A stretch of 64,000 nucleotides of DNA from Gemmatimonadota bacterium (GCA_034521595.1 JAXHMG010000003.1:32001-96000), one strand, 5' to 3'; numbered from the stretch's first letter, positions 1 through 31,443 are shown. Made by a program: numbers and translations. Notes: generated from the letters alone by a model not told the origin.

Positions 1-88
1 TCACCCCGCCACACCCGTTCCGGGCCATGTAGGCCGGAGCGCCCGCAGGGCGCGGAGCCGGCAACATACTTTGTTAGCGGATGTTGGC
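1..88 (-). repeat. attC-like recombination site no. 2 (partial, truncated by left window edge)
   Basis: 1-33 matches 619-651 at 32/33 nt. It then carries the GGA-stem-GCA-stem-GGA hairpin (36-56), CCGGCAACAT and the GTTAGCGG core (73-80), in the same order as the complete site at 536-695. Confidence 0.8.
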
Positions 89-234
89 GTCCTGTGGTCC
101 ACGAAACACTTACGGTCGACGTCACGAGGAACGTCGCGTCGACGGCTATCCGTTCCGGTGGTTCGACCCCAAACGGAAACCCCGCGGACACACGGTCGAG
201 GGATCGCGCGAAGGGAGCCCAGGGAGCGAGCAGA

Positions 235-467
235 CCGAAGGTGTAACCCCAGCCGACCGAAGATGCCTCGGAGCGGGTGAACGCGCGATTCACCAAAACC
301 TCTTTGGCGCCGTCGACGAAGAACCTGCCGGGTGGACATCGCAGCCGTGGATCGAGCCCGCCCGACTGTGTGGAGCCACACGGGGGGAGGGACAGCGGCG
401 AATCCATAGGGTGGTGGGCGTGACTCGGGCCGAAGGTGCGAACCCAACTGACCGTAGATGCCTCGGA
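235..467. repeat. Internal 38-bp direct repeat pair in cassette 2 (235-272 and 430-467)
   Basis: CCGAAGGTGTAACCCCAGCCGACCGAAGATGCCTCGGA vs CCGAAGGTGCGAACCCAACTGACCGTAGATGCCTCGGA, 32/38 identical, 195 bp apart. Confidence 0.85.
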
Positions 468-535
468 CGAAGTCACTGCACGAGAACCTGAACGCGTCGC
501 CGCTGTCCTCGAACCTGACCATCCATGGCCAATGT

Positions 536-695
536 CCGCTAACGTTCAGATGTTTCCGACGTGGCCCACCACCGCTCCCTCCGGAGCCGGCCGCCCGTCA
601 TGAATACGGCTTAGGCGCTCACCCCGCCACACCCGATCCGGGCCATGTAGGGGAGCGAGCGCAGCGAGCGGACCCGGAAACATTCTTGTTATGGG
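536..695 (-). repeat. attC-like recombination site no. 1 (complete, 150 bp from AAC to GTT)
   Basis: CCGCTAAC (536-543) ... GTTATGGG (688-695). Inner arms ATGTTTCCG (550-558)/CGGAAACAT (675-683) and ACGTGGCCC (559-567)/GGGCCATGT (640-648). Side hairpin at 655-669. Confidence 0.85.
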
Positions 696-2027
696 ACGTG
701 TGTTGTCGCTCGGCGAGTCACCATGCTCCCCGCTCCACAAGAGCATGACCACGATTCCCTTACGGCTTGGTTAGTTCCAACATGACCACCGCCGGCACGT
801 CGAGCTCATTGAGGCGAACAGCCAAGATGTGCGTATCCGTGATGTCGAGCAGAGCGTGACGTACCCTGGCAGTTCGACCCATCCTTGTAGCGTCCCGTCA
901 CGAGTAATGACACGCCATCTGTCCGGGGGTTGGATGGGAAGGCCGTACTGGCCCAGCCACACGTTACCGACCCTATCTACATGGAAACCGTCCCAGTAGG
1001 GCAAAGGCCCGTCATGTCGATCCAGGCCTTCCTCCAGTCTTGCGATCTCAGCGTTGATGAAGGCCTCTTCGGCACCGCGGGCGGCGTAGGCCTCGCGGTA
1101 GGCTTGCGCCATATCCTGCTCCCAATCCGGAGTCAACGGAAACGGCTGCTCCTCCCAATGCGCGACCTGCAGCAGACGCCCCGAACTGTCGTACCAAGTG
1201 ACTTCCGGACGATCCGAACGTGCCCAGGCAAACCCGTCGGCAAACCCTCCCGCGCGACCCTTGACCGAAATGGGTCCAGGCCCTGCTCCGCGGGTCCCGT
1301 ACCACCGTCTGAGATGAGGCAACTCGGCCAAGGTATCCGTTTCGGCCTCGACGAGATCAGTAATGAGGATCGGCTGCATCTCGAAAACCCATTCGGGCCG
1401 CATTTCAGATACCCCGCTGTAGCCGTCTCCGGGTACGAGAAGAACACGCCCGTCAGCAAATGCAGATGAGGCGTAGTGGAGGAAGCTGCCCGGAAGGGGC
1501 TCAGTGGCCACTACTTCTCCCTCCCTCGAGAGGACCGTGATTCGCCGGAGCCTCCCGTCCGTCACAATGACTGAGTCGCCTTGCAAGATCAGCGCATCAA
1601 GGCCCTGATACTCCCCGGGACCTTCTCCCTTGCGGCCCCATACCTCCAGCACTGTCCCGTCGGGGGCGAGCCGATAGATCTTCCCTTCGCCGTACTCACC
1701 GATGAGTGCCCCACCATCCGGCATGATCTGGCCTGACTGCACCCAGGTGAACGTCGGATCACCAGCCGCCCAACCGAGTGAGAAAAGAGGCTCCGAATTG
1801 GCGGTCCACTCCGCCGAGCCCGGCGTACCATTCTGCACAATGCGGATACCCGACGAATCGGTCACCACGGCCTCGGCGCGGCCAGCGGTTTGTGCCTCTG
1901 GTCCACATGCCGACCCTAGGAGACTGAGAACCAGTGCTCCCGCTAGCTTCGGACTCTTCAATGGGGAAGCCTCCAGCTCAGTGATAGGTCAAACCCGGGA
2001 TCCGACCCAACAACACATGTCCCATAA
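543..2027 (-). mobile_element. Integron-like cassette 1 (single gene plus attC-like site)
   Basis: Starts at G|TTATGGG on the minus strand (2028/2027). Ends 2011-2028 and 688-705 are reverse complements at 17/18 nt. One ORF with RBS; visibly more A/T-rich codon usage than the flanking chromosome. Confidence 0.8.
760..1961 (-). CDS. 6-bladed beta-propeller-like lipoprotein (cassette gene); apparent frameshift near 851-854 affects the last ~30 codons
   Basis: TTG start with GGAGG RBS (1970-1974), lipobox LGSAC, propeller-like motifs (WGRKGEGPGEY, FHVDRVGNVWL). The called ORF ends at 771, but a shifted frame gives a more plausible end LLDITDTHILAVRLNELDVPAVVMLELTKP* at 760. Confidence 0.75.
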
Positions 2028-2040
2028 CTGTTTATTTCCG
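2011..2040 (-). other. attI-like primary insertion site (half site: L-like box plus G|TT core)
   Basis: Minus strand reads CGGAAATAAACA-GTTATGGG. It has the same T(G/A)TTTCCG box next to the AAC/GTT core as the attC sites, but no full partner arm. Lies between the recombinase stop and the first cassette. Confidence 0.6.
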
Positions 2041-2258
2041 AATCAACGTGTCGGGTTGCCCCGTTGGGGGCGTGGGGTTTCCGACGTTGATGGTCCCGTG
2101 GATAACAGGCTGCTCGATCCACGCGGTCCGGCCTCTGCGGCCTGCCTCGGTCGCGCCCGCCACTCGGCCCGCTCGGCATCTCGACCCGGCCGACTGTGTC
2201 CAACGTTCGCTACCTCGTCCGCGAGCGCAAGCGACAGCCGGCGCTGATCTCACGGCTC

Positions 2259-3443
2259 TCATTCCAGGTTGTCGAGCGGACTTCTGAGGGTTTCGAGCGT
2301 CGACTGGGCGACATGGGTGTAGACCTGGGTGGTTCGGGCGCTTTTGTGGCCGAGGAGCTCCTGGATGACCCGGAGGTTGGTGCCGCCCTCGAGGAGGTGG
2401 GTGGCAAAGCTGTGACGGAGGGTGTGGGCCGTCACTCGCTTTTGGAGTCCGGCGGCCTCGGCTGCCTGCTGGACGATGCGTTGGACGGACCGGGTCGTCA
2501 GGTGGCTTTCGGGCGTGCTGCCGGGGAAGAGCCACGGTCCGGTGGGGTAGGCGTCACGGTAGATTTGTACGGCCTCGACTGCGCGCCGTGCCAGCAGGGT
2601 GTACCGGTCCTTGCCGCCCTTGCCGCGGCGTACCCGTAACAGGCCGCGTTCCACGTCGAGGTCTTCGGGGGTGAGGCGGACGAGCTCGCTCACCCGCAGG
2701 CCGGCGCTGTAGAGCAGCATGAGCAGGGCTCGGTGCTTGGAGTTGCGAGGCTTCTGCAGGATGCGGGCGACCTCGTCCGGGGCGAGCACGGTGGGGAGGG
2801 GCCGGTCCTTCCTGGGTCTGGGGATCCGGAGGGCGACTCTGGGCCGACCGAGCACGGATTCGCAGAGGAACCGGAGCGCGCTCACGACCTGATTCTGGTA
2901 GCTCTTCGAGATCCCTTGGCCGCGGACCAGGGAAAGTAGGTACGTCTGAGCCTCTTTCCCCGGGTCGGACGGGAGGCTGGGGACGCCTCCACCGCACCAC
3001 TCCAGGAATCTGCGGATCTGTCCCAGATAAACCTTGCGGGTCTTGGGGCTGTACCCCCGGAGGTCGAGGGCTCTACGGACCCGCTCGAGGATCTCGTCCG
3101 GCGCTTCGGTGGTGGGTGGTCGCGTCGGCTCGTGTCGTCGAACGTCACGCTTTTCGTCGGGATCGGGACGGTCGAGGGAGTCGGTGCCTCCGGGCGGTTC
3201 CGGGGATGGGGCGGTGCGGTCGTCGATGACCCAGACCTGCTTCGGGCCGACCGCGCGTTGGAGCGCGGCGATGGCCGCGTCCGCGTGCGGCGCGCTCCAG
3301 ATGCCGCGGTCCGGTCGGAATTCCCGGCCGGGTAGCGCGCGGACGGCGGCGAGTGCGGGAGCGAAGTGTGAACGCCCCAACTTGATGAGAACGCGGTCTT
3401 CCCCGGGGACGACGCGAACGGTGACGGCGGGATCCGTGGCCAT
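2259..3443 (-). CDS. Tyrosine recombinase/integrase with SAM-like domain and extra HARP-like N-terminal domain; lacks the IntI insertion
   Basis: Catalytic motifs intact: GLRVSE, GKGGKDR, HTLRHSFATH, LGH, TTQVYTH. C-terminal RSPLD. SAM-like region RGYSPKTRKVY. Only 23 aa between KDR and WLFP. ATG at 3443 chosen (ORF extends to GTG 3458). Confidence 0.92.
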   Translation of the reverse strand: MATDPAVTVRVVPGEDRVLIKLGRSHFAPALAAVRALPGREFRPDRGIWSAPHADAAIAALQRAVGPKQVWVIDDRTAPSPEPPGGTDSLDRPDPDEKRDVRRHEPTRPPTTEAPDEILERVRRALDLRGYSPKTRKVYLGQIRRFLEWCGGGVPSLPSDPGKEAQTYLLSLVRGQGISKSYQNQVVSALRFLCESVLGRPRVALRIPRPRKDRPLPTVLAPDEVARILQKPRNSKHRALLMLLYSAGLRVSELVRLTPEDLDVERGLLRVRRGKGGKDRYTLLARRAVEAVQIYRDAYPTGPWLFPGSTPESHLTTRSVQRIVQQAAEAAGLQKRVTAHTLRHSFATHLLEGGTNLRVIQELLGHKSARTTQVYTHVAQSTLETLRSPLDNLE

Positions 3444-3500
3444 GCCCAAGGAAACCACGGGGTCCGGGGCGGTGGCATGGGGCGATCGGACCGTCGGTGG

Positions 3501-5042
3501 CTACCCGGTGCGCTCGATCTCTGGCCGTCCGGCGTCCAGGCGCCAGCTCGACGCGGTCGTGACAGGGGCTCCCGGGCGGGTGACGTAGTTGACGGTGCGG
3601 TAGTCGGCCGTCCAGGCATCCCCGGTCACGCTGCAGCGCACGTAGCCGCGGCGGCTGTTCTGCCAACGGACGTGGGGGTTGTCGCTCATCGCCTCCCGCA
3701 CGGAGTCGAACATGTCCGCTCCGTCTCCGTTCGAGCTGATCGAGGTGCCGACGAGCTCGGCTCCGATGACGGGGCGGTCGGGGCGGTCGTAGCCGGCGTG
3801 GAGATCGTTGACCCAGTTCGAGTGGCTGTCGCCGGTGAGCACGACGGTCCGGCCCGGCGCTGCGTCGGCGAGGGTCTGGAGCAGTCGGTCCCGGGCCACG
3901 GGGTATCCACTCCACTGATCCATGGATGTGACCACGTCCGAACCGGGGTCACGGTCGAAGGGCGCCATCATGATCTGTTGCGCGAGGACTTGCCAGGTGA
4001 CGCCGTCGCGGCCGAGCTGGCGGGTGAGCCACCGTTCCTGCGCGGTCCCGAGCATGGTCCGCCCCGCGTCGTTCCAGTCGCCGCACGGCACCTCGCGCCT
4101 GCCGTCGCCGCATGCCTGGTCGCTTCGGTACTGGCGCGTGTCGAGCGTGTGGAACGCCGCGGTGCGGCCCCATCGGAAGGAGCGCCAAATGGTGAGGTCG
4201 GCCCAGGAGCCCGGCCGAGGGATGCGCACCGGCTGGTGCTCCCACCAGGCCTGATAGGCGGCGGCCCGGCGGGCGCGCATGCGTTCGACGTCTTCGGGGT
4301 CGTGCTCCCCGACGAGATCGGCGTAGTTGTTGTCGACCTCGTGGTCGTCCCAGGTGACGATCCAGGGGCAGAGGGCGTGCGCGGCTTGCAGCGCGGGATC
4401 CTCCTTGTACTGCGCGTAACGGCGTCGGTAATCCTCGAGGGTGACGATCTCCGGGCCGTGGTGCGCGCGCACCTGGTTCTCCCCGGTCCCGTATTCGTAG
4501 ATGTAGTCGCCGAGATGCGCGACGAGATCGAGGTCCTCGCGGGCCAGGTGCTCGTAGGCGGTGAAGAGCCCCTGCTCGAAGTGCTGGCACGACGCGAACG
4601 CGAGATCGAGCCGGGCGTCCGTGCCGGTGCGGGGCGCGGTGCGGAGGCGTCCGACGGGGCTGTTGCCGTCCGCGAGATGGAAGCGGTAGAAGTACCATCG
4701 GTCGGGCTCGAGACCGTCCACATCGACGTGCACGGAGTATCCGAGCTCGGGCACGGCCGTATGCCGACCTTGCCGAACGACCCGAGCGAAGCCCTCGTCG
4801 CGGGCGACCTCCCAGTCGATGACGGTTCGCGTCCCATCCATGCCGCCGTGCTCCTCGAACGGAGCGGGCGCGAGTCGGGTCCAGATCACGCATCGGTCCG
4901 GGAGGGGGTCGCCGGAACCGACACCGAGTGTGAACGGATCTCCGTCGAGGCGCGGCCGCGACGTCACGCGCCACATGCCGGGCACACCCGCGCAAAGGAC
5001 GGCGTAGCGCGTGAGATCGGCCAGGAAGTTGCGGCGGTCCAT
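3501..5042 (-). CDS. phoD: Alkaline phosphatase D family protein (Tat-exported)
   Basis: DRRNFL Tat motif, FTLGVGSGDP, HLGDYIYE, WDDHEVDNNY, LDTRQYRS, DQWSGY, LTGDSH. Confidence 0.9.
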   Translation of the reverse strand: MDRRNFLADLTRYAVLCAGVPGMWRVTSRPRLDGDPFTLGVGSGDPLPDRCVIWTRLAPAPFEEHGGMDGTRTVIDWEVARDEGFARVVRQGRHTAVPELGYSVHVDVDGLEPDRWYFYRFHLADGNSPVGRLRTAPRTGTDARLDLAFASCQHFEQGLFTAYEHLAREDLDLVAHLGDYIYEYGTGENQVRAHHGPEIVTLEDYRRRYAQYKEDPALQAAHALCPWIVTWDDHEVDNNYADLVGEHDPEDVERMRARRAAAYQAWWEHQPVRIPRPGSWADLTIWRSFRWGRTAAFHTLDTRQYRSDQACGDGRREVPCGDWNDAGRTMLGTAQERWLTRQLGRDGVTWQVLAQQIMMAPFDRDPGSDVVTSMDQWSGYPVARDRLLQTLADAAPGRTVVLTGDSHSNWVNDLHAGYDRPDRPVIGAELVGTSISSNGDGADMFDSVREAMSDNPHVRWQNSRRGYVRCSVTGDAWTADYRTVNYVTRPGAPVTTASSWRLDAGRPEIERTG

Positions 5043-5093
5043 GGGAGCCTCCTTGCAGTCGAGGAGAGGAGTGGGCTGTGGTACCCCGCGACC

Positions 5094-5477
5094 CTACGTC
5101 TCCGGCGGCTTCGTCGGCTTGGTCCAGATGAAGGTCAGCCCCCAGACGACCAGCACGACGGTGAGCCCCTTGGTCCATCGGGGTGCGGCGCTGAACAGGA
5201 TCATGTAGCCCACCAGCGGCACGATGGTGGCCGTCGCGAGGATCTTGGCGCGGAGGCGGATGACGTGGTGCCGCTCCCAATCCCGGATCATCGGGCCGAA
5301 GCGGGGGTGCTCGAGCAGCCGTGTGTGCAGCCGCTTCGAGCCCTTCGAGAAGCACCAGGCCGCGACCAGCACGAGAGGCGTGGTGGGGATGACGGGCAGG
5401 AACGCCCCGACGATGCCGAGTCCGAGCGCGGCCCATCCGCCGGCGATCCACGCCCAGCGGGTCGTGCGCGTGCCCAT
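5094..5477 (-). CDS. YbaN/DUF454 family inner membrane protein
   Basis: LGIVGAFLPVIPTTPLVLVAAWCFSKGS...LLEHPRFGPMIRDW signature. Confidence 0.85.
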   Translation of the reverse strand: MGTRTTRWAWIAGGWAALGLGIVGAFLPVIPTTPLVLVAAWCFSKGSKRLHTRLLEHPRFGPMIRDWERHHVIRLRAKILATATIVPLVGYMILFSAAPRWTKGLTVVLVVWGLTFIWTKPTKPPET

Positions 5478-5567
5478 GCCTCCGAAGCGCCCTCTCCGGG
5501 ACTCGAGCGGAGGGCTCGGGGATGCGCGTGAGCGTGGCGTGTTCGAGTCGGGCACCATGTCCGTATA

Positions 5568-6221
5568 CTAGCTTCCGCGCTCCTCCAGCACATTCGCGAT
5601 CTCGTCGAACCCGACGCCCGCCGCTCGGGCCGCGACGAGGACGTGGTAGACGAGGTCGGCGGCTTCCTCGGGGATGCGGTCCGCCTCGTTCTTGGCAAGG
5701 GCGGTCACGAGCTCCGCGCACTCTTCCCCGAGCTTCTTGAGGCGGAGGTTCTCGTCGGTGAGGAGCTTCACGGTGTAGCTGCCCTCGGGACGCTGGGCGG
5801 CGCGGTCGGCGAGGACGGCGTCGAGGCGGGCGAGGACGGACTCGGCGGGCGGTGAGCCCGGCTGAGCGGACGCCGGCCCGGAACCTTCTCCGAAGCAGGT
5901 CGCTTCCCCGGTGTGGCAGGCCGGTCCCTCCTGCCGCACGACGGCGAGCACCGTATCCGCGTCGCAGTCGCCGTGCAGGCTCACGACGTGCTGCACGTGG
6001 CCGGACGTATCGCCTTTGCGCCAGATCTCGCTGCGCGAGCGGGACCAGTAGTGCATGCGTCCGGAATCGAGCGAGCGCGCGAGCGCGTCGCGGTTGGCGT
6101 AGGCGACCATCAGCACCGCGCCGGTGCGGGCGTCCTGGGCCACGACGGGCACCAGGCCGTCCGCCTTGTCGAAGTCGATGGCGTCGAGGTCTGCGGGGGT
6201 GCGGAGCGTTCGGTCGGTCAT
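5568..6221 (-). CDS. hisIE: Bifunctional phosphoribosyl-AMP cyclohydrolase / phosphoribosyl-ATP pyrophosphatase
   Basis: [52 protein letters not shown]. Confidence 0.95.
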
Positions 6222-7090
6222 GGTTGCTCTTCGCGTTGATCTTCGATGGGGTGTCGGGATGGGGTCGTGAGGTCGGGGCCGTCGCGAAACCACGCCATGC
6301 GTCGGATGGCGGGCAAGTCGACACGGCCGCCGCGGGGCACGGCGAGGAGGTCGGGATCCTCGTACCACGGTTCGTCGAGCAGATCCATGAATACGGGGAG
6401 GTGGGTCGAGCCGACCACCCGGTAGTCGAACGAGCGCAGGAATCCGAGGCACGCGCGGAGCTCCCGGGCCGAGTGTACGGACAGCAGAGCGAGAGGGACC
6501 CGAGCTTCCCGTGCCCGGAGCGAGGTGAGGAGGCTTCGGGCGCCGGCGAGCACCCGTCCTTCGGCGCCCTCGACGTCGATCTTGAGAAACGTGGGGGCGG
6601 CGAGGCCGTCGTCGTCGACGAGGCTCGAGATGGTGCGCACCTCCACCGCTTCGGTCCCGCCGCCCAACCTGTGGCTCACGGACGAACCGGCGCCTCCGAA
6701 GTCCGCGGTGCCGTCGAAGTCGGCCAGCGCGGCGGGATGCACGGCTACCCGATCGGCTCGGTTCCAGCGCAGGTGTTGGTGGAGGTAGCGGCGGTTCTCG
6801 GCGGAAGGCTCGAACGCACGGACGGCGCCGGCGCTTCCGACCACCCCCTCCGCGACCAGCGCGGCATAGCCCCGATGCGCGCCGACGTCCCAGAAGACGT
6901 CGTCCTCCCGGAGCAGGCTCTCGAGGGCTTCGAAGCGGTCCCGCTCGTAGCGGCCGGACCAGACGCCCCGACCGCTCGCCGCGAGGCTCCACCGGCGCCC
7001 GGCGTTCGGTCCGTTGCGGATCCGCACGGGCACGCTCCGGATGGGGAACGACACCCACCGGCGCATCGGAACCGGGAGCCTCAGCGCCAC
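6218..7090 (-). CDS. FkbM family SAM-dependent methyltransferase
   Basis: [24 protein letters not shown] motifs. Confidence 0.85.
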
Positions 7091-7136
7091 GGCGACGCGG
7101 TCTTCGGGTGCTCACCCGGCGGGCGCACGCGAAACC

Positions 7137-7907
7137 TCACTCCGGCACGGCTGGACGCACGTTGATCTTCCAGTCCGTGAGCGCGGCCTTGAGCGCGCCG
7201 ACGGTGGTGAGACCGTCGTGCAGGATGCCGGCGACGAGCGCGGCGGAGGCGTGTCCCTCCTTGAAGGCGTCGCGGAGGTGCTCGGCGCGGCCGGCACCAC
7301 CCGAGGCGATGACGGGGACGGGCACGGAGTCGGCGACCGCCCGGGTGAGCTCGAGCTCGTACCCGCTGCGCGCCCCGTCCTGGTCGATGGAGGTGAGGAG
7401 GATCTCGCCGGCGCCCCGCTCCTCGAGCTCGGCGGCCCACGAGACCGCTTCGAGCTCGGTGGGCTTCGAGCCGCCGTGCGTGTAGCAACGCCAGCTTCCT
7501 CCTTCCTCGCGGGCCGCGTCGATGCTGGCCACGACGCACTGGCTGCCGAAGCGCTCGGCTCCGAGGGAGACGAGCTCGGGATCGCGCACGGCGGCGCTGT
7601 TCACGCTGATCTTGTCCGCGCCGGCGCGCAGCAGGGGGCCGATGTCGTCGGCGGAGCGCACCCCGCCCCCGACCGTCAGCGGGATGAAGAGCCGCTCGGC
7701 GGTCCTGCGCACCACGTCCAGGAGCGTACCCCGGTCCTCCTTGGAGGCGCTCACGTCGAGGAAGACGATCTCGTCGGCGCCCTCCTGCTCGTAGCGCTCC
7801 GCCAGCGCGACGGGGTCGCCCACGTCGCGGAGGTTCTTGAACTGCGTGCCCTTCACGACGCGGCCGTCCTTCACGTCGAGGCAGACGATGACGCGTGGAC
7901 GGAGCAT
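7137..7907 (-). CDS. hisF: Imidazole glycerol phosphate synthase cyclase subunit
   Basis: CLDVKDGRVVKG, GADEIVFLDV, PLTVGGG, GAGEILLTSIDQDG, VIASGGAG. Confidence 0.97.
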   Translation of the reverse strand: MLRPRVIVCLDVKDGRVVKGTQFKNLRDVGDPVALAERYEQEGADEIVFLDVSASKEDRGTLLDVVRRTAERLFIPLTVGGGVRSADDIGPLLRAGADKISVNSAAVRDPELVSLGAERFGSQCVVASIDAAREEGGSWRCYTHGGSKPTELEAVSWAAELEERGAGEILLTSIDQDGARSGYELELTRAVADSVPVPVIASGGAGRAEHLRDAFKEGHASAALVAGILHDGLTTVGALKAALTDWKINVRPAVPE

Positions 7908-8446
7908 CAGTCGATCCGCTCCACGGCGACGGCGCCTTTGGTGCTGAAGACGCGCTCGCCTTCGACGAGTGCTTGCCGCAGGGCGAGGCCCGTGGCTTTC
8001 ACTCCCGCCTCGACCATGTGGTGCTTGTCCTCGCCGCGGATCACGCGTACGTGCAGGGTCGCACCGAGGTTCACGGCGAGCGACTGCAGGAAGTGCTCGT
8101 AGAGGCGCGACGGGAGCGGGCCCACGTAGTAGGGCCGTCCGCCCACGTCGACGGCGGCCTCGACGAGGGCCTCGTCCATGGGCACCTGGGCCCACCCGTA
8201 GCGGGTGGCTCGCGCGGGAACCTCGTCCCGGAGCGCTTGCCCGAGTGTGATCGCCACGTCTTCGATGAGGTGGTGACGCAGGTCGCCGGTGGCCTCGAGC
8301 TCGATGACGAGGCCGGCGTAGCGGGCGAGCGTCTCGACCATGTGCCCGAGGAACCGGTCCTCGACGCGCACGGTGGCTTCACCCGTGCCGCGGCTCACGT
8401 TTAGGATGATGTGGGTCTCGCGGGTTTCCCGCTTCAGCTTGCTCAT
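7907..8446 (-). CDS. hisB: Imidazoleglycerol-phosphate dehydratase (monofunctional)
   Basis: RETRET, FLGHM, HHLIED, PMDEAL, HHMVE, STKG. Confidence 0.93.
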   Translation of the reverse strand: MSKLKRETRETHIILNVSRGTGEATVRVEDRFLGHMVETLARYAGLVIELEATGDLRHHLIEDVAITLGQALRDEVPARATRYGWAQVPMDEALVEAAVDVGGRPYYVGPLPSRLYEHFLQSLAVNLGATLHVRVIRGEDKHHMVEAGVKATGLALRQALVEGERVFSTKGAVAVERID

Positions 8447-9204
8447 CGCTTCTCCTTGCTGCCGCCGGTGGTGTCGGTCGTGGGCTCGGTGCGCCCGCCC
8501 CATCGCGGCGCGACCACGTCGGGGTCGAGCGTCTCCGTGTAGAGAGCCATGCCGAGCACGGCGCCCGTGGCCCCTCGGTCTTCCAGGTACTCCAGCTCGC
8601 TCATGGTGGTCACGCCGCCCGAGATCCATGTCGGATGCGGGCACGCCTCGATCACCCGGCCCACCGAAGCGCGGTCGATCCCCTCCATCTTTCCCTCCCG
8701 ACCCACGTCCGTCGACAGGACGCCGGCCAAGGGCAAGCTCGCGACGTTCCCGAGAAAGCGCTCGACTTCGATGCCGGTGTCTTCCGTCCAGCCCTTGCGG
8801 AGCACGCGTCCGGCCCGGGTGTCGAGCGCGATCATGATCCGGCCCGGGTTGCGCTCGGCTTCGGTCGCGAGCCAGTCCGGCTCGTCGATCGCCTTGGTGC
8901 CGACGATCACCCGGTCGGCTCCTGCGGCGAGGAGCGCGTCGATCCGCGCGCCGTCCCTCACGCCCCCGCCGACCTGGGTCGTGGCGGCGGTGGCGCCGAG
9001 CAGCTTCTCGAGCACCGCCAGGTGGTCGCCGTGGCCGAGGGCGGCGTCGAGGTCGACGAGGTGCAGCGTCCCGAATCCCAGCGACCACCACCGCTCGGCG
9101 ACGGCCACGGGGTCGGGCAGCGAAACGCGCTCGTCCTCGGGGCGCCCGCCCACGAGCTGCACGCAGCGGCCCCCGCGAAGGTCCACGGCGGGTGCGGCGA
9201 TCAT
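8443..9204 (-). CDS. hisA: ProFAR isomerase
   Basis: PAVDLRGGRCVQL, LHLVDLDAA, QVGGGVR, TDVGREG, SGGV. Confidence 0.93.
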   Translation of the reverse strand: MIAAPAVDLRGGRCVQLVGGRPEDERVSLPDPVAVAERWWSLGFGTLHLVDLDAALGHGDHLAVLEKLLGATAATTQVGGGVRDGARIDALLAAGADRVIVGTKAIDEPDWLATEAERNPGRIMIALDTRAGRVLRKGWTEDTGIEVERFLGNVASLPLAGVLSTDVGREGKMEGIDRASVGRVIEACPHPTWISGGVTTMSELEYLEDRGATGAVLGMALYTETLDPDVVAPRWGGRTEPTTDTTGGSKEKR

Positions 9205-9824
9205 CGGTGGGCTCCCGCGCCCGCCGCGCGCTGCTCGACCTGGGCGACGAAGTTCCAGATGATCCGGCGGCCGGCGTGTGAGCTCTTCTCGGGGTGGAAC
9301 TGGAGGCCCCAGGTGTTGCCCACACGCACTCCCGAAGCGTATCGCTTGCCCCCGTACTCCGACCAGGCGATCGCGTGCCGGGGATTCGCGGGGACGCAGA
9401 TATAGGAGTTGGCGTAGTAGGCCACGAGCGGACCCACACCCTCGAAGATCGGGTCGGCCGCGGTCTCCACGTCGTTCCAGCCCATCTGCGGGACGATGGG
9501 CGCGTCGATCACCTCGACCCGGCCGGGCACCCGTCCGATCCCGTCGCCCTCCGACTCGTCCGACGCGTCGAAGAGGAGCTGCATCCCCAGGCAGATACCG
9601 AGGCACGGCAGGCCCTCGTCGAGCGCTTCGCGGATCGGTCGGCGGTCGGCGGGCAGAGAGGCGGCCGCGTGGCCGAACGCGCCCACGCCGGGGAGCACGA
9701 GCGCGTCCCGGTCGAGGGCTTCGTCCCAGTCGTCGGTCATGGCCACCTCGGCCCCGGCGGCCTCGAGCGCCTTGCCGAGCGAGTGCATGTTGCCGGCTCC
9801 ATAGTCGTACAGGGCGATCTTCAT
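9201..9824 (-). CDS. hisH: Imidazole glycerol phosphate synthase glutaminase subunit
   Basis: DYGAGN, LPGVGAF, GICLGMQ, PQMGWN, QFHPEKS. Confidence 0.95.
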   Translation of the reverse strand: MKIALYDYGAGNMHSLGKALEAAGAEVAMTDDWDEALDRDALVLPGVGAFGHAAASLPADRRPIREALDEGLPCLGICLGMQLLFDASDESEGDGIGRVPGRVEVIDAPIVPQMGWNDVETAADPIFEGVGPLVAYYANSYICVPANPRHAIAWSEYGGKRYASGVRVGNTWGLQFHPEKSSHAGRRIIWNFVAQVEQRAAGAGAHR

Positions 9825-10969
9825 CGGGGGTCGCGCTCGCGCGATGGGTCGGAGGAAGGGGACGAAGGGACGGCCTCCCGCACGGCGTCGAGCGCGTCGA
9901 GGAACCGTTCCATGAGCCTCCACGGGCCGATCGTCACGCGCAAGCCTTCGCCCATCCCGGCGATCCCGGTGAAGGGCCGCACGCCGATGCCGTGCTGGCG
10001 CAGCGCGCGGACGTCCTTGGTGGCCGCTCCGCTCGGAGCGGGGAAGAGGATGAAGTTCGCTTGGGACGGGACCGGGTCGAGGCCGCGGGAGGCGAGCTCG
10101 GCGTGCAGACGCTCGCGGTTCGTCCGTGCTTCCTCGACGATTCCGGCCATCCAGCCCTCCTCGTCCCGCACGGCGGCGGCGACCGCCTCGGCCGTGAGCC
10201 GGGCGACCTTGAAGGGGCCCCGAGACTTCTCGATCTCGAGCGCAGTCTCGGGGGTGGCGATGCCGAAGCCGCAGCGCAGCCCCGCCAGCCCGTACGCCTT
10301 CGAGGCCGTGCGCGCCACGAGCAGGCCGGGAGTCTCGGCGCCCCGCGCGATCCACGTGTCCTCGGCGAAGTCCGCATACGCTTCGTCGAGAATGACGAGC
10401 GGGGCTGAGGTCGTGCCCGGAGCCCCGGCGGACTCGGGCACGCTCGCCGACCGCTCACCCACCAGATCGAGCAGCGCCTCCAGCCAGCTCGCCGGAGCGA
10501 CCTCCCCGGTCGGGTTGTTCGGGCGACACACGTAGACGACGGCCGGGTCGTGCTCGAGCAGGGCGGCCGGATCCTCGAGGGCCCGCGTCCACGGAACCGG
10601 GTGCGGGCCCATGCCGTTCATGCGCGCGAGCGGCTCGACCATGGAGAACGTGGGGCTCGCGTATGCCACCACCGTGCCCGGTCCGGAAGCGGCGCGGAAC
10701 GCCGAGTCGAGCACGTCGTCCGATCCGGCGCCGGTGGTGACGCACTCGGCCGGCACGTCGAAGCGCCGGGCGACGGCGTTCCGCAGCACGTCGGCGTAGA
10801 GCTCGGGATAGCGGGCCAGGTCGTCGGTCTCGGCCGCACGGATGCGGGCGAGTGCGGCGGGATGCGTGCCCCACAGGTTGGTGTTGTCGCTCAGGTCGAG
10901 CGCGACCGGCTCGCGGTCGGGCTCGTAGCGGGTGAGCGCGCGGTAGTCGTCGCGGGGGAAGGGGCTCAT
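9821..10969 (-). CDS. hisC: Histidinol-phosphate aminotransferase
   Basis: LSDNTN, PNNPTG, DEAYADF, RTASKAYGLAGLR, SQANF. Confidence 0.93.
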   Translation of the reverse strand: MSPFPRDDYRALTRYEPDREPVALDLSDNTNLWGTHPAALARIRAAETDDLARYPELYADVLRNAVARRFDVPAECVTTGAGSDDVLDSAFRAASGPGTVVAYASPTFSMVEPLARMNGMGPHPVPWTRALEDPAALLEHDPAVVYVCRPNNPTGEVAPASWLEALLDLVGERSASVPESAGAPGTTSAPLVILDEAYADFAEDTWIARGAETPGLLVARTASKAYGLAGLRCGFGIATPETALEIEKSRGPFKVARLTAEAVAAAVRDEEGWMAGIVEEARTNRERLHAELASRGLDPVPSQANFILFPAPSGAATKDVRALRQHGIGVRPFTGIAGMGEGLRVTIGPWRLMERFLDALDAVREAVPSSPSSDPSRERDPR

Positions 10970-12324
10970 CGCTCGGGTCCTCCGCGCTCGGGCGCTTCGC
11001 CTTCGCCGGCTCCCCGGCCGTGCTCCGTCCGCCGAGCGAGCGCTGCCGCCGCGTGCGCGTAGAGCCCCTCGGCTTCGGCGAGCAGGGCCACGTCGCCCGC
11101 GAGCGCCTCGGCTCCCTCCCGGTCGATCTCCTGGAGGGTGAACGAGCGGAGGAAGTGCTGGGTGGAGAGACCGGAGAAGCTCCTGGCCCGACCGGACGTG
11201 GGGAGCACGTGGTTGCCGCCGGTCATGTAGTCCCCGTATGCGACCGAGGCCCACTCGCCGACGAAGGTGGTGCCGGCGGTGGGGACCCGGCGGGCCACGG
11301 CCGCCGCGTCGCGCGTCATGACGGAGAGGTGCTCGGGCGCGTACCGCACCGTGAAGTCGATCGCCGCCTCGAGGCTCTCGGTGGTGAGCACGGCTCCGGC
11401 CGCGGCGAGCGCTTGCCGGCAAATGTCGGCGCGCGGCGTTTCCGCGAGCTGGCGAGCGAGCGCCTCCTCGGCTTCCCGGGCGACGCGCTCGGACGGCGTC
11501 ACGAGGACCGAAGCGGCGTCCGGATCGTGCTCGGCCTGGGCGAGGAGCTCCGTGGCCACGAGCCACGGGTCCGCGTCGCCGTCGGCGAGGACCAGGACCT
11601 CCGAAGGGCCGGCCGGCGAGTCGATGATAACGTCGCCGGCGACCTGGCGCTTGGCTTCCGTCATCCAGCGGTTCCCGGGACCGACGATCGCGTCGACCCT
11701 GGGCACGCTCTCGGTGCCGAACGCGAGCGCGGCCACCGCCCCGGCCCCACCCAACGCGAAGAGCCGATCGGCGCCCGCGATGGCGCACGCCGCGAGCACC
11801 TCGGCGGGTGGGCGGCCGTCCGGCCCGGGTGGCGAGCAGACGACGACCTCCCGGACGCCCGCGGCGCGGGCGGGCACGACGCCCATGAGCACCGAGCTGG
11901 GATAGGCCGCCCGTCCGCCGGGCGCGTACACGCCGGCGCGGTCCACCGCCGTGGAGACCCGCGTCACCCGCACGCCGGGCTCCACCTCGACGGTGACCTC
12001 GTCGGGGACCTGCGCGGCGTGGAAAGCGTGGATGTTGTGGGCCGCCCGCTCGAGCGCCGCCCGCACGGGTGCCGAGAGCCCGGCGAGGGCGTCGTCCCAG
12101 GCTTCCCGCGGCACTTCGAGCGCGTCGAGCACGACCCCGTCGAAGCGCTGCGCCATGTCGTGGAGCTCGGCGTCGCCACGACTCCGGACTTCTCGGATGA
12201 GGCCGGCGACGAGGTCCTTCACGCGGCCGTCGTCGCCGAGGTCGCGCTCGAGGAGTGCTGTGAGAGACTCCTCGTCCAGCTCCGCAAGCGGACCGCGCGC
12301 GAAGAGGTCGACGCCGGCGCTCAC
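10966..12324 (-). CDS. hisD: Histidinol dehydrogenase
   Basis: GVYAPGG, YPSSVLM, IVGPGN, PAGPSE, QAEHD, APEHL, GDYMTGGNHVLPT. Confidence 0.97.
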   Translation of the reverse strand: MSAGVDLFARGPLAELDEESLTALLERDLGDDGRVKDLVAGLIREVRSRGDAELHDMAQRFDGVVLDALEVPREAWDDALAGLSAPVRAALERAAHNIHAFHAAQVPDEVTVEVEPGVRVTRVSTAVDRAGVYAPGGRAAYPSSVLMGVVPARAAGVREVVVCSPPGPDGRPPAEVLAACAIAGADRLFALGGAGAVAALAFGTESVPRVDAIVGPGNRWMTEAKRQVAGDVIIDSPAGPSEVLVLADGDADPWLVATELLAQAEHDPDAASVLVTPSERVAREAEEALARQLAETPRADICRQALAAAGAVLTTESLEAAIDFTVRYAPEHLSVMTRDAAAVARRVPTAGTTFVGEWASVAYGDYMTGGNHVLPTSGRARSFSGLSTQHFLRSFTLQEIDREGAEALAGDVALLAEAEGLYAHAAAALARRTEHGRGAGEGEAPERGGPER

Positions 12325-13196
12325 GGCATCAACCTCTCGATGCGGGTCACCAGGATGCCTTCCGCTCCGAGCTCCTTCAGCTTCGCGATCGTCTGGTACA
12401 CCTGATCCTCGTCCACCACCGCGTGCGCGGCCACCCAGGCGCCGTCGTCCAGTACCTCGACGATGGTCGGGCCGGAGATGCCGGGCAGCACCTTCCGGAC
12501 CTCCTCGAGACGATCCTTGGGCACGTTGGTCATCAGGTAGCGCTTCGCCTGAGCCCGTAGCACCGATTCGAGGGCGGTCGAGAGCAAGTCGATCTCGCCG
12601 CGCACGTCCGCTTCGGCGAGGGCGGCGGGGCTCGCGACGAGCGTGGCCGAGGAGTGGAGGATGGTGTCGACTTCCCGCAGCCCGTTTACCCGCAGCGTGG
12701 ATCCGGTCGAGGTGAGGTCCACGATGACGTCCGCGACGCCGAGGTGCGGCGCGATCTCGGCCGCGCCGCTCACCGGGGCGATCTCGATGGGAATCCCGAG
12801 CTCGTCGAAGTGGGCCTTGGCCGAGCGGGGGAAGGAGGTCGCGACCCGCGTGCCCGCGGGCAGGTCCTTGCTGGAGTTGGCGGGGGCTTCGTCCTTCACG
12901 GCCACGATGAGCCGGCAGCGCCCGAACCCGAGGTCGAGCACCTCTTCGACGTCCCGGCCGCTCTCTCGGACGAGGTCCGAGCCGGTCACGCCCAGCTCCG
13001 CGGCGCCGTCGGCCACGTACTCGGGAATGTCCTGGGCTCGGACGAAAATGGCCTGGAAGTCGTCGCCGAGTGACGCGACCAGCGCTCGGTCCGCCCGGAA
13101 CGCGGGCTTGAGGCCGGCTTGCTCGAACAGCTCGAGCGTCTGCTCGGAGAGCCGTCCCTTGTTCGGGATCGCGATCCGGATCCTTCTGTCTCTCAT
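12321..13196 (-). CDS. hisG: ATP phosphoribosyltransferase, long form
   Basis: AIPNKGRL, DIPEYV, LGFGRC, DLTSTGSTL, C-terminal regulatory domain (LPGISGPTI...GAEGILV). Confidence 0.96.
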   Translation of the reverse strand: MRDRRIRIAIPNKGRLSEQTLELFEQAGLKPAFRADRALVASLGDDFQAIFVRAQDIPEYVADGAAELGVTGSDLVRESGRDVEEVLDLGFGRCRLIVAVKDEAPANSSKDLPAGTRVATSFPRSAKAHFDELGIPIEIAPVSGAAEIAPHLGVADVIVDLTSTGSTLRVNGLREVDTILHSSATLVASPAALAEADVRGEIDLLSTALESVLRAQAKRYLMTNVPKDRLEEVRKVLPGISGPTIVEVLDDGAWVAAHAVVDEDQVYQTIAKLKELGAEGILVTRIERLMP

Positions 13197-13257
13197 CTCG
13201 TTCGCCTCTCAGGCTCGTCGGTCGACCCGCCCGGCCACGCAGACCGGGTGCGGCCAG

Positions 13258-13294
13258 AAATAAAAAACGCGACCCGTCTCGGAGACGGGTCGCG
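13258..13294 (-). terminator. his attenuator intrinsic terminator
   Basis: Perfect stem CGCGACCCGTCT/AGACGGGTCGCG (13268-13294) followed on the minus strand by TTTTTTATTT; lies between leader peptide and hisG. Confidence 0.9.
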
Positions 13295-13321
13295 GTGGGG
13301 TGCCTTCCCGGGACGCACGTC

Positions 13322-13399
13322 CTAGGCGCGCACCACCCTCCCGCCGCCCGTCCGGGCCACGTGATGGTGATGGTGCGGAACGTGGGTCGTGATGCTCAT
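13322..13399 (-). CDS. hisL: his operon leader peptide [25 protein letters not shown]
   Basis: 25-aa ORF with a run of 5 His codons plus one more His, directly upstream of the terminator and hisG. Confidence 0.88.
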
Positions 13400-13435
13400 G
13401 GCGGGAAGCTGACGCGGGCGCGCGGGCGCGTCAAC

Positions 13436-13479
13436 CCTGGCACGGGCCTGACACGGGCCTGGCACGGGCCTGGCACGGG
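13436..13479. repeat. 4 x 11-bp tandem repeat CCTG(G/A)CACGGG
   Basis: Units at 13436, 13447, 13458 and 13469 in the divergent hisL/uvrA intergenic region. Confidence 0.9.
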
Positions 13480-13553
13480 CTGCTGGACGGTCCGCCCGAC
13501 TCGGTGGACGCGGGGCGGTTCGGGGACACCGCCTCGTGGTTGTATCATCATTC

Positions 13554-16439
13554 ATGGACCACCCGATCCGGATCCGCGGCGCGCGGCAGCACAACCTCAA
13601 GAACATCGACGTCGACCTCCCGAGACGGGCGCTCACCGTCGTGACCGGCCCTTCGGGGTCGGGGAAGAGCACGCTCGCGCTCGACACCCTCTTCGCCGAG
13701 GGTCAGCGACGCTACGTGGAGTCGCTCTCGACGTACGCGAAGCAGTTCCTCGAGCGAATGGAGAAGCCGCACGTCGATTCGATCGAGGGGATCAGCCCGG
13801 CTGTCGCCATCGAGCAGAAGAACCCGACCAAGACGAGCCGTTCCACGGTCGGCACCGCGACGGAGGTATACGACTACCTGCGCCTCCTGTGGTCACGGGT
13901 CGGGCGGACGTACTGCCCGGTCTGCGGCCGCCGGGTGCGTCCCGACACGGTGAGCTCGGCCATCGATCGGGTGCTGGAGCTCGAGCCGGGGACGCGCGTC
14001 CAGGTGGCTTTTCCGCTGGCGCACGGGGCGGCGCTGACCCATCAGGCCGTGGTCGAAAACCTGCGGGCCATGGGATTCGTGCGGGTCCTGGCCGACGGGG
14101 AGCTCGAGGACCTGGGCGGGAGCGAGGCCATCACGCCGGAAGGGCTCGGACGCGACTTGACCGCGGCCGGCGAGCTCCTGGTCATCGTGGACCGGCTCAA
14201 GGTCGACCCGGAGGATCGCGAGCGGCTCGCCGACTCGCTCGCGACGTGTTTCGTGGAGGGGGAGGGCGAGGCGCTCGTGCTGATCTCTCCGCGCGAGGGC
14301 CCGCAAGAGCGACTCCTCTTCACCGAGCGATTCCGCTGTCCCGATCACCCGGACATCACCTTCCTGCAGCCCACGCCGCAGCTCTTCTCGTTCAACAACC
14401 CGTACGGCACCTGTCCCACGTGCACGGGCTTCGGGGCCACGCTGGAGTACGATCCGGAGCTGATCGTGCCCGATCCCGAGCGCTCACTCGCGGAGGGTGC
14501 GGTCGACCCATGGTCGAAGCCCCGTTACAAGAAGGAGCGCGCCCGGCTCGATCAGTTCGCCCGCGACCAGGGTGTTTCCACGGAGGAGCCGTGGCGGGAG
14601 CTGCCCGAGCCGTTCCGCGACGCGGTGCTGCACGGCACCAAGGGCTTCAAGGGAGTGATTCCCTTCCTCGTATCCCGCGAGCGCAAGAAATACAAGCAGT
14701 ACATCCGGGTCTTCCTGCGCCAGTACCAGACGCCACGCCCCTGCGCGGAGTGCGGCGGCGGGCGGATCCGGAAGGAAGCCCGCTACGTGCGCATCGGCGG
14801 GCGGGACATCGCGGAGGTCTCGGCCATGCCGCTCGAGGAGCTGGCGGTTTGGGTGGGGGAGTTGGCCGGTGGTGCGCCCTCCGACGACCGGACGCAGGCC
14901 GGAGCCTCCACTCCGGTTCTGACCCGGATGGAAGCGCAGATCGCCGAGTCGATCCTCCGGGAGCTCCGGGCGCGGACCGGATTCCTGGTCGATGTCGGGT
15001 TGGGGTACCTGACCCTCGACCGGCAGACCCGTACCCTCTCGGGGGGTGAGGCGCAGCGGATCAACCTCGCCAACTCCCTGGGCTCGGCGCTGGTGGACAC
15101 GCTCTACGTGCTCGACGAACCCACGGTGGGACTGCACCCCCGTGACACCGGCAAGCTGTTGGACCTCCTCGGTCGGCTCAGCGCGGCCGGCAACACCGTC
15201 GTGGTGGTGGAGCACGACCCCGAGGCGATCCGCGCCGCCGACCACGTGGTCGAGCTCGGTCCGGCGTCGGGTGAGCGGGGCGGCGAGCTGGTGTACGCGG
15301 GGCCGCCGGATGCGCTCGGCGAGCGGGATACCGCGACGGGGCGCTACCTCTCGGGTCGGTCGGGAGTCGCGCTTCCCGAGCGCACCCGCGACGTGCGGGG
15401 CAAGAGCCTCGCGCTTCGGGGGGGGCGGCTGCACAACGTGAAGGACGCGGACATCGAGATTCCGCTCGGCACGCTGACCGTCGTCACCGGGGTGTCGGGT
15501 TCGGGAAAGTCCACGTTGATCCACGACGTCCTCTACCATGCGCTCGAGCGTGCGCTGGGCGGAGAGAGCTCCGCGAAGGAATACCTGGGCGAGGCGGTGG
15601 GAGCCTGCGACGGGCTCGACGGCGTCAGCGCGCTCGACGAGGTGGTGCTCGTCGACCAGTCGCCCATCGGCCGGACGCCGCGCTCCAACCCGGTCACCTA
15701 CGTGAAGGCCTGGGACCACGTCCGCAAGATCTTCGCGGACCAGCCGGTCGCGCGGGAACGGGGCTACACGCCCGGACACTTCAGCTTCAACACCGCCGGG
15801 GGGCGGTGCGAGGAGTGCAAGGGCGCGGGACACGTCGAGATCGAGATGATCTTCATGGCGGACGTCTACGTGCCGTGCGACGCCTGCGGCGGTCGGCGCT
15901 ACGGTCGTGAGATCCTGGACGTGAAGGTGCGCGGCAAGAACGTCTCGGAGGTGCTCGACCTGACGGTCGACGAGGCGATCCGCTTCTTCATCCGGGAGCG
16001 AAAGCTCGGTAAGGCGCTCTGGCACTTGCAGCAGGTGGGGCTCGGCTACCTCCGGCTCGGCCAGCCGGCGCCGACGCTGTCGGGGGGAGAGGCGCAGCGT
16101 CTCAAGATCGCCCGCGAGCTCTCGGGCGCCGCCGGCCGGAAGGGACGGAAGCTCTACATCCTGGATGAGCCGACCACCGGACTCGCCGGCGAGGACGTGA
16201 GCAAGCTCGTCGACGTCCTCGAGCGGCTCGTGGACGCGGGCAACACCGTGCTGGTCATCGAACACGACATGGACGTGGCCAAGGTCGCGGACTGGATCAT
16301 CGACATGGGCCCGGGAGCCGGGCACCGGGGCGGGGAGGTGGTCGCGATGGGGCCGCCCGAGACCGTGGCCGGCGTGCCCGGGAGCGCGACCGCGCCGTAC
16401 CTTCGCGCGGCCCTCGACCGGGCTGTGGAAAAGGTCTGA
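13554..16439 (+). CDS. uvrA: Excinuclease ABC subunit A
   Basis: [39 protein letters not shown], two LSGGEAQR motifs, second Walker A GVSGSGKS. Confidence 0.96.
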
Positions 16440-30568: not shown

Positions 30569-31434
30569 GTATCGGTGTTCCGGTGTTCGTTCACGTTTCC
30601 GGGGCCGCCCGAGGGGCCGACTTCCTCTTTGAGGTCGGCCAAGGTCACGGTCCGGCGCTCGCCTTCCGGACCGCGCAGGCTCACGGTGTCGCCCCAGATG
30701 TCCACGGCGACCACCTTTTCTTCTCCGAGGGAGGTGCGGATCTTCCGCCCTTCGCGCGGGAAGCGCCGCCGTGCCTCCACGTACGTCTTGTGCTCGTACA
30801 TCAGGCAACACATCAGCCGTCCGCAGCACCCGCTGATCTGCGCGGGGTTCAGCGAGAGGTTCTGGTCCTTCGCCAGCTGGAGCGAGACGGGCTTGAGCTC
30901 GGGTAGCCAGGTCGAGCAACAGAGCTCGCGGCCGCAGCGACCGACGCCTCCGAGCAGCGCGGCTTCGTCCCGCACCCCGATCTGCTTGAGCTCGATGCGC
31001 GTCCGGAAGGTGCGCGCCAGGTCACGCACGAGCTGCCGGAAGTCGACTCGCTTTTCGGCGGTGAAGTAAATGATCAGCTTGTTGCGGTCGAACTGCCACT
31101 CGGCTTCGGTCACCTTCATGTGCAGCCCGTGCTTCTGGACGAGCGTACGGGTTTCTTTCCGCACGCGATCCTCGTCCTCCCGAAGCTCGTCGAGGCGGGC
31201 GATCTCCTCGTCCCCGGCGAGCCGTACGATCCGATTTTCCGGCGTGGGCGTGGAACACCCTCCGGACGAGGAGCACTTCCGCTCGGCGACGACGCCGATC
31301 GCCGAAACGACCCCGAGGTCTTCCCCCCGGTCCGCTTCGACGATGACGTGGTTCCCGGCTCGTACATCGGTGTCGGAGTACGTGTAGTACTCCTTGCGGG
31401 ATCCCTTGAACCGGACTTCGGCGAAGCCTGCCAT
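30565..31434 (-). CDS. ricT: PSP1/RicT (YaaT) family Fe-S regulatory protein
   Basis: RVDFRQLV, RIELKQIGVRDEA, GRCGRELCC, ISGCCGRLMCCLMYE. Confidence 0.9.
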   Translation of the reverse strand: MAGFAEVRFKGSRKEYYTYSDTDVRAGNHVIVEADRGEDLGVVSAIGVVAERKCSSSGGCSTPTPENRIVRLAGDEEIARLDELREDEDRVRKETRTLVQKHGLHMKVTEAEWQFDRNKLIIYFTAEKRVDFRQLVRDLARTFRTRIELKQIGVRDEAALLGGVGRCGRELCCSTWLPELKPVSLQLAKDQNLSLNPAQISGCCGRLMCCLMYEHKTYVEARRRFPREGRKIRTSLGEEKVVAVDIWGDTVSLRGPEGERRTVTLADLKEEVGPSGGPGNVNEHRNTDT

Positions 31435-31443
31435 CGCGTACGC

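Follow-up and report, generated by a model that had tools for sequence, protein, structure and literature searches.

An integron-like cassette array adjoining a tyrosine recombinase without the IntI insert in a Gemmatimonadota bacterium

Integrons are defined, detected and counted by a domain that is specific to the integrase IntI, and the I2 helix of this enzyme, together with the extrahelical bases of the attC site, is considered to account for the choice of strand and for synapsis when attC is folded. The left end of a 64,000-nucleotide stretch of Gemmatimonadota DNA (GCA_034521595.1, JAXHMG010000003.1:32001-96000; the window hereafter) raises the question whether such a platform can be run without that domain. 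It carries on its minus strand the gene of a tyrosine recombinase that lacks the insert, followed at its 3′ end by an attI-like half site, cassettes and large palindromic sites. Our reading, to which we give a probability of roughly three in four, is that the locus is the integrase-proximal end of a chromosomal integron-like cassette platform run by this recombinase of 394 amino acids. The window is C3:32001-96000 of a 3.49-Mb genome in 3 contigs that is 93% complete, and the locus lies at its left edge; the analysis was therefore extended over the whole of contig C3. Coordinates without a prefix are those of the window.

The recombinase gene occupies 2259-3443 on the minus strand if read from the family start ATG at 3443 (open reading frame (ORF) 2259-3458), with the array at its 3′ end as the initial annotation, made from the window alone, had it. 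That annotation had also placed a palindromic site at 695-536 and a homologous one at 88-1 that runs off the window, and both were recovered with small adjustments. Site 1 lies on the plus strand at 543-706 (palindrome 543-691, flank 692-706), where the left R box TAA|C ends at 543 and the right R box GTTA is at 688-691. Site 2 is represented in the window by its 3′ part (1-88, plus strand), the whole site being C3:31925-32076 and starting 75 nucleotides left of the window; its right R box GTTA is at 73-76, with a cassette-specific flank at 77-88. It is matched by an nhmmer profile built from the site at C3:31903-32093 (E 8e-43) and by a covariance model with 162 bits, and its positions 1-33 are 97% identical to 619-651 of site 1. 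Extending the contig leftwards brought out the further sites that had been anticipated, and the main array was found to hold at least 17 co-oriented imperfect palindromes of ~150 nucleotides over ~34 kb. C3:606-32712 has 17 copies, all on the plus strand, the last of which is the site in the window. Genome-wide, the nhmmer profile found 33 copies with E-values down to 1e-48, far more than chance would produce, and the covariance model 27; the nhmmer copies outside the main array form clusters at 1.01-1.03 Mb and 1.50-1.52 Mb, apart from solitary copies at 332 kb, 968 kb and 1.45 Mb. Another 3 copies, on the minus strand, are found where contig C1 begins (C1:1-6724), and C1:1881-3603 is 93% identical to C3:1879-3612. 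The main array probably continues past the contig break into C1, or the C1 stretch is a second copy. The array region has a GC content of 58-65%, against 68-72% to the right of it. Rfam, searched with positions 1-3500, gave nothing at E up to 1.

For the anatomy of the sites, 23 of them (20 of this genome and 3 of genome G249) were aligned and a consensus fold was derived. TAAC and GTTA are invariant in this set. The fold consists of an R stem (TAACG/TGTTA), a spacer of 5 nucleotides on one arm against 3 on the other and an 8-bp L stem (ATGTTTCCG/CGGAAACAT in site 1), followed by a third stem (ACGTGGCC/GGCCATGT) enclosing the variable centre and by a side hairpin on the 3′ arm; site 1 has all these stems within 543-706. 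Compensatory changes occur in 9 of the 26 consensus pairs, those of the L stem and the third stem being among them. In the fold derived from the 23 sites neither a T-N6-G bulge pair nor any bulge inside the L stem can be seen, while on pairing by hand one unpaired T/A bulge next to the L stem is possible.

The nucleotides just outside the boxes are specific to the cassette. Two inverted repeats in the window, 688-706/2010-2028 (19 nucleotides, 95%) and 73-88/528-543 (16 nucleotides), are formed by such flanks: the first bases of cassette 1 (2010-2027, minus strand TTATGGGACATGTGTTG) pair with 688-706 at 14 of 14 positions counting G·T, and those of cassette 2 (528-542) pair with 73-88. We compared the 14 nucleotides right of each GTTA with the 14 nucleotides left of the TAAC of the next site. 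The flanks of one and the same cassette gave 11.7 of 14 Watson-Crick pairs (15 neighbour pairs), against 6.8 of 14 in the 211 other combinations. At the remaining positions of the neighbour pairs the plus strand has 22 G·T against 1 A·C, which identifies the plus strand as the one under selection to fold; this folding strand is complementary to most of the cassette genes. Flank pairing recurs in six other genomes (8.3-11.2 against 4.3-6.6), where the ratios of G·T to A·C are 53/5, 19/2, 22/4, 12/4, 5/1 and 29/17. As for strand orientation on the chromosome, all 30 site copies of C3 lie on its plus strand, and the cumulative GC skew of the contig has its peak near 1.16 Mb and its minimum near 2.90 Mb. 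Provided that an excess of G over C indicates the leading strand, the main array would have its folding strand as the lagging-strand template, and the clusters at 1.45-1.96 Mb would have theirs as the leading-strand template.

The limits of the moving unit can be read from duplicates. Cassette 2 (body 89-542, minus strand; whole cassette C3:31925-32542, 618 bp) has a copy at C3:1518569-1519186 with 93% identity that runs from the TAAC of its own site to the TAAC of the next site. A second copy of cassette 1 at C3:17552-21412 (95-99% identity) is split by an IS21-like insertion, and cassette 3 is duplicated within the array at 90.5%. These duplicates tell which site travels with which gene, each unit extending from the C of one left box as far as the TAA in the following one, and its boundaries put the exchange point in the 5′ arm of the folding strand; by analogy with IntI, the exact bond would be TAA|C. 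The flank pairing and the duplicates ending at TAAC both indicate that the cassettes are separate mobile units with their limits at the box. In content, cassette 1 has the one gene that had been assigned to it (771-1961, minus strand), which encodes 396 amino acids with a lipoprotein-like N-terminus and no Pfam family, and all of its 94 homologues are unnamed or hypothetical. Cassette 2 has no convincing ORF, none passing the test on GC at third codon positions; it contains a 38-nucleotide direct repeat (235-272/430-467, 84% identity, 195 nucleotides apart) and a 12-nucleotide inverted repeat (390-401/497-508). Other cassettes of the array encode HigB with a helix-turn-helix (HTH) protein, ParE/Phd, HepT, Gp49/HTH, DUF6932/HTH, SnoaL and several proteins without a family, a content that is typical of chromosomal integrons. 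Insertion sequence (IS) elements of four kinds are found inside long units. In C3:14271-17551 and 30926-31924 the toxin-antitoxin-like HigB/HTH, Gp49/HTH and DUF6932/HTH cassettes are coded opposite to the other cassette genes. The 12.7 kb of C3:1536-14270 are a part of the array without a full site, with Mutator, IS3-type and DDE transposase genes, a fragment of a histidine kinase and one of a permease, and the final 570 bp duplicate part of cassette 13.

Between the stop codon of the recombinase gene and the first cassette lies a predicted attI-like region (2028-2258, minus strand), which borders on the half site GTTATGGG (2028-2021) that the initial annotation had pointed out. Judged from this arrangement, crossover would take place between 2027 and 2028, 231 nucleotides past the recombinase stop. 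The region joins half an R box to an L-box-like TTTCCG (TAAC|TGTTTATTTCCG on the plus strand), and a second CGGAAAC follows ~45 nucleotides further; the sequence beyond 2027|2028 is not a site, yet it keeps the L-box-like TTTCCG. Similar junctions are present in genomes G334, G346 and G167, and a cross-genus alignment of attI showed no alignable conservation past the box and the L-box-like motif. The copy of cassette 2 mentioned above ends at C3:1519186 with TAAC|TGGTTGTTGCCG, which resembles the attI junction, and the CAACGTTCGCT...GAGCGCAAG motif recurs from there on at a similar distance. Local alignment of this place with attI gave a marginal score of 35 against a shuffle maximum of 34, and it is perhaps the remnant of a second attI that has no recombinase gene.

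To see how far sites and recombinase go together, 101 genomes of the order were compared, the counts including the unpublished genomes G310, G344, G097 and G353; three scans with the same family denominators are treated as one sample. The site model was found in 20 genomes, the recombinase (E ≤ 1e-65) in 18 and canonical IntI over its cut-off in 15. Sites are present in 15 of the 18 genomes with the recombinase against 5 of the 83 without it, while 78 genomes have neither. In 12 genomes the gene is on the same contig as the sites, and in 11 of these (G000, G249, G270, G167, G334, G304, G346, G314, G356, G312 and G326) the array is at the 3′ end of the gene, starting ~0.4-1.5 kb from it in the same relative orientation. 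The only exception is G239, in which the gene is inverted so that a classical divergent layout results; in the first 7,000 nucleotides of its contig C3, sites are at 1179-1324 and 2537-2687 (plus strand) and the gene starts near 4220 (plus strand). Array sizes reach ~25 sites in G346 and ~39 in G334. Gene content at the locus is variable, as had been supposed, with cassettes that differ between genomes and are duplicated as exact units. In contrast, the initial annotation had taken an array at the 3′ end of the integrase gene for a departure from integrons, and this did not hold, the array being 3′ of intI in 3 of the 3 canonical Gemmatimonadota integrons looked at. In G270 (C1:738001-758000, ~4690-15942 of that stretch), units of ~340 bp downstream of the short recombinase repeat up to 13 times at 76-98% identity, with ~16-20 site matches; from the sequence they resemble cassettes in tandem with hardly any genes.

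Canonical IntI occurs widely in the phylum (over cut-off in 125 of 301 genomes), and the array could be conceived as a fossil left by such an enzyme, whose gene would since have disappeared or be situated in unassembled DNA, the short recombinase being unrelated to the upkeep of the array. In line with this, canonical IntI is over cut-off in 4 of the 20 site-bearing genomes and present as a fragment in a fifth, and attC-site clusters in which the integron integrase is missing (CALINs) are well known according to Cury et al. 2016. We nevertheless regard this explanation as unlikely. In 15 of the 20 site-bearing genomes, one of them a single-contig assembly, the search for canonical IntI came up empty, as it did in the genome studied here, where only three tyrosine recombinases were found, the other two being Xer-like; an IntI elsewhere in this genome, which would have spoken against the initial annotation, was not detected. 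The covariance model of the site had 0 matches in 35 canonical-IntI loci (197 kb) and the nhmmer site profile none either, these loci carrying shorter, ordinary-looking attC sites. It is the short recombinase that the sites follow: 15 of the 20 genomes with sites have it, and the array is at its 3′ end in 11 of the 12 with both on one contig. The cassette copies at 93-99% identity argue for recent activity.

If the short recombinase does run the array, its relation to IntI becomes the main point. It is composed of a HARP-like N-terminal domain (3228-3443), a disordered linker, a core-binding domain (~2841-3092) and a catalytic domain (~2304-2789), all on the minus strand, and has no IntI insert. 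Among 32 members of the family, the catalytic residues R, K, H..R, H and Y show no or almost no variation. Its best family match is TIGR02249 (integron integrase) with 213.5 bits against a cut-off of 265, obtained in two stretches that leave profile positions 175-234 unmatched; NF011946 (IntI) gave 145.9 against 435 bits, and the XerC and XerD equivalogs 192.8 against 335 and 188.8 against 330 bits. The closest solved relative is VchIntIA (2a3v, sequence E 6e-45), in which 67 residues (173-239) face 25 residues of the recombinase (293-317). By fold, too, the full-length model (mean predicted local distance difference test score (pLDDT) 77.7) matches 2a3v best (E 4e-17), residues 298-317 being without a helix. 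Where 30 canonical IntI of the phylum have 54 residues (one 55) from KDR to W.FP, the recombinase has 23, and from W to HxLRH it has 36 where they have 46 (one 47). Ten family members have intervals of 23 (one 24) and 36, and two IS91-associated recombinases 23 and 35-36. The insert is specific to IntI according to the preprint of Smyshlyaev, Barabas and Bateman (10.1101/542381). K209, Y210 and W219 of VchIntIA, which contact the second extrahelical base according to Larouche and Roy 2011, all fall within the 173-239 stretch that has no counterpart in the short recombinase.

A tree was built from 63 rows after three fragments had been dropped, with the insert columns left out by a 60% fill rule; its IntI are all from this phylum and the Xer outgroup has 12 rows. 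A clade of 51 rows (IntI and relatives) is split from Xer at 100% support. Within it, 29 canonical IntI make up one clade (100% in the Shimodaira-Hasegawa-like approximate likelihood ratio test (SH-aLRT), stem 1.04) that excludes all 10 family members; the IS91-type group has 99% and two Bacteroidota plasmid recombinases 99%. By this placement the short family is neither Xer nor nested in IntI, and its place is in the subgroup that Smyshlyaev et al. call 'Integron-like'. The initial annotation was therefore right in setting the enzyme apart from IntI, on the TIGR02249 score as well as in the tree, and its term XerC/D-like stands for the 23-residue interval and not for descent, as the recombinase sits in the superclade of IntI and IS91-type recombinases.

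An ordinary integron in decay, its recombinase being a recent deletion derivative of IntI that is inactive or partly active, has in its favour that IntI is both the nearest solved relative and the best NCBIfam match and that the layout is as in the canonical integrons of the phylum. This we hold to be a little less probable still than the fossil. The enzyme is not nested among the 29 canonical IntI, its interval lengths are constant in the family and equal to those of the IS91-type relatives, and there are thousands of homologues (the close ones labelled Gemmatimonadota or Longimicrobiales) with invariant catalytic residues and a conserved extra N-terminal domain. Lastly, conserved, structured intergenic palindromes on a single strand, some of them scattered as singles, might suggest repetitive extragenic palindromes or miniature inverted-repeat transposable elements spread by transposition or replication slippage between immobile units, but this is the least credible explanation and very improbable, as such spread would not make the two outer flanks of a unit complementary, would not duplicate gene and site with identity ending at TAAC and would not link the repeats with a single recombinase family from genus to genus, and no transposase, of the RAYT type or other, is consistently adjacent, the IS elements being ordinary insertions inside cassettes.

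What distinguishes the short recombinase, besides the missing insert, is its N-terminus. Residues 1-72 are conserved across the Gemmatimonadota family and were modelled as beta-beta-alpha-beta-beta-alpha with a pLDDT of 86.9. Pfam HARP (PF07443) is a sub-threshold match in 7 of 10 of these domains (E 0.00018 to 0.2), and a profile of the 10 domains run against all PDB sequences found 4o66 (SMARCAL1 HARP) at E 3.4e-4, the next match being at 0.4. A structure search of the ESM Atlas with the domain gave scores <0.9, one cluster being auto-named SMARCAL1-like. The HARP domain and the N-terminal domains of XPB and UvsW reportedly represent one structure-specific DNA-binding fold. PF07443 is over cut-off in 0 of 151 genomes of the phylum, so that a genuine HARP alignment for profile-profile comparison is not buildable there. 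The domain is probably HARP-like, and our hypothesis is that it reads the folded site.

Several results weigh against the platform reading or parts of it and should be set beside the foregoing. For the domain, the best Pfam HARP score is 21.4 against a gathering threshold of 25 bits; Foldseek returned nothing at E ≤ 0.001, with 4o66 sixth at E 0.39, and VIA-align gave nothing significant, the best Z being 5.2 (eIF2D) and the XPB and UvsW N-domains reaching 4.5-4.9. For the enzyme, the tree leaves the branching order of the short family, the IS91 group and IntI open, and the short family comprises several lineages. Among the 101 genomes, 5 have sites only (G310, G316, G318, G328 and G342) and 3 the recombinase only (G179, G324 and G344, all of them fragmented, with 230-740 contigs). 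Since the genomes compared are related, they are less independent than the co-occurrence counts suggest, and in the 4 site-bearing genomes with canonical IntI cross-use is possible. The G·T bias of G346 (29 against 17) is weak, no sigma-70-like promoter was found near attI in a scan of 1900-3700, and the genome is at 93% completeness and in three contigs. Public sequencing runs are neutral on excision: Logan contigs of three runs of one study (X1 and X2 being one sample, possibly that from which the assembly was made) have the joints 66>686, 574>21 and 700>532 only, whose sides are shorter than 36 nucleotides and within repeats, and which favour neither excision nor its absence; a loose end GTTCAGATGTT after 2028 is seen in these contigs because of the second copy of cassette 1.

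Set against known systems, the locus shares with canonical integrons a long array on one strand, led by one tyrosine recombinase and made up of cassettes that mostly have a single gene and are foreign in composition; imperfect palindromes with AAC...GTT boxes, R stem, central spacer and L stem and a boundary inside the box; a folding strand that is the complement of most cassette genes; the presence of duplicated and of toxin-antitoxin cassettes and of inserted IS elements; and satellite CALIN-like clusters elsewhere in the genome. It differs in a recombinase without the ~31-residue insert and a further ~10 residues, below the curated cut-offs, outside the IntI clade and with an extra HARP-like domain, and in sites of ~150 nucleotides with a three-way junction and side hairpin, unlike canonical attC. 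From XerC/XerD it is separated by scores below the equivalog cut-offs and by the position of the Xer rows as an outgroup clade at 100%. Related to it are the IS91/IS3-associated recombinases described in 10.1101/542381, which are in the same superclade (100% against Xer), have 41-43% identity and show the same intervals (23 and 35-36 residues) without the IntI insert. Those are, however, of ~290 residues, without the N-terminal domain and directly upstream of an IS91 transposase, whereas the gene here is followed by 231 non-coding nucleotides and the cassette array, with no transposase. Two recombinases of Bacteroidota plasmids (Rufibacter and Chondrinema) are in the same superclade and are also followed by small co-oriented ORFs. 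In the Rufibacter plasmid these have the flank pairs GTTGGC...GCCAAC and GTTAGCGG...CCGCTAAC, and in the Chondrinema plasmid a GNAT gene and then a group II intron reverse transcriptase come after the recombinase. Their N-terminal extensions have no similarity to the HARP-like domain by local alignment (scores 27-28). An IntI-based pipeline would label the locus a CALIN in the sense of Cury et al. 2016 if its attC model recognises the sites, and the clusters at 1.01-1.03 and 1.50-1.52 Mb fit the term, but the main array, unlike a CALIN, adjoins a dedicated recombinase. Cury et al. report four intermediate recombinases without intI_Cterm near attC, each with <3 sites and judged not to be IntI. 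The papers searched in full text gave no description of insert-less recombinases heading cassette arrays. On the gene's other side, a 513-residue ORF (3501-5042, minus strand) lies immediately upstream and marks the start of the chromosome of normal GC.

In the sequence tests with a clear outcome the locus behaves like an integron, and it fails the tests that define IntI membership. We infer catalysis by the short recombinase, a single-stranded substrate, the cleavage point and a role for the HARP-like domain. In the mechanism that we propose, the recombinase would excise cassettes as circles by recombining two folded ~150-nucleotide sites and would insert them into the attI-like site that follows shortly after the stop codon of its gene. 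The folded plus strand would be cut at TAA|C in the 5′ arm, in analogy to IntI on attC bottom strands. The enzyme would be related to IntI, with the I2 insert either never acquired or lost and the HARP-like domain in its stead; this domain may help to recognise the branched three-way-junction form of the unusually large sites. The platform is presumably sedentary.

A wider proposition, which we offer tentatively and with somewhat less than even confidence, is that integron-type capture exists without I2: a separate and widespread lineage of IntI relatives would run three-way-junction arrays in Gemmatimonadota, with architectural counterparts in Bacteroidota, its HARP-like N-terminal domain reading the single strand in folded or branched form and so replacing I2 and the extrahelical bases. 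A conserved insert-less family that heads arrays of 15 to >40 sites in one order, with the recombinase in 18 of 101 genomes, means that surveys would miss this class of platform or file it as orphan CALINs. If the insert-less state is ancestral, the elements would show integrons as they were before IntI gained its hallmark domain. The system would in any event offer a natural example of a platform that lacks I2 and has a candidate domain in its place, and it may give access to a large unexplored pool of cassettes in soil and saline Gemmatimonadota.

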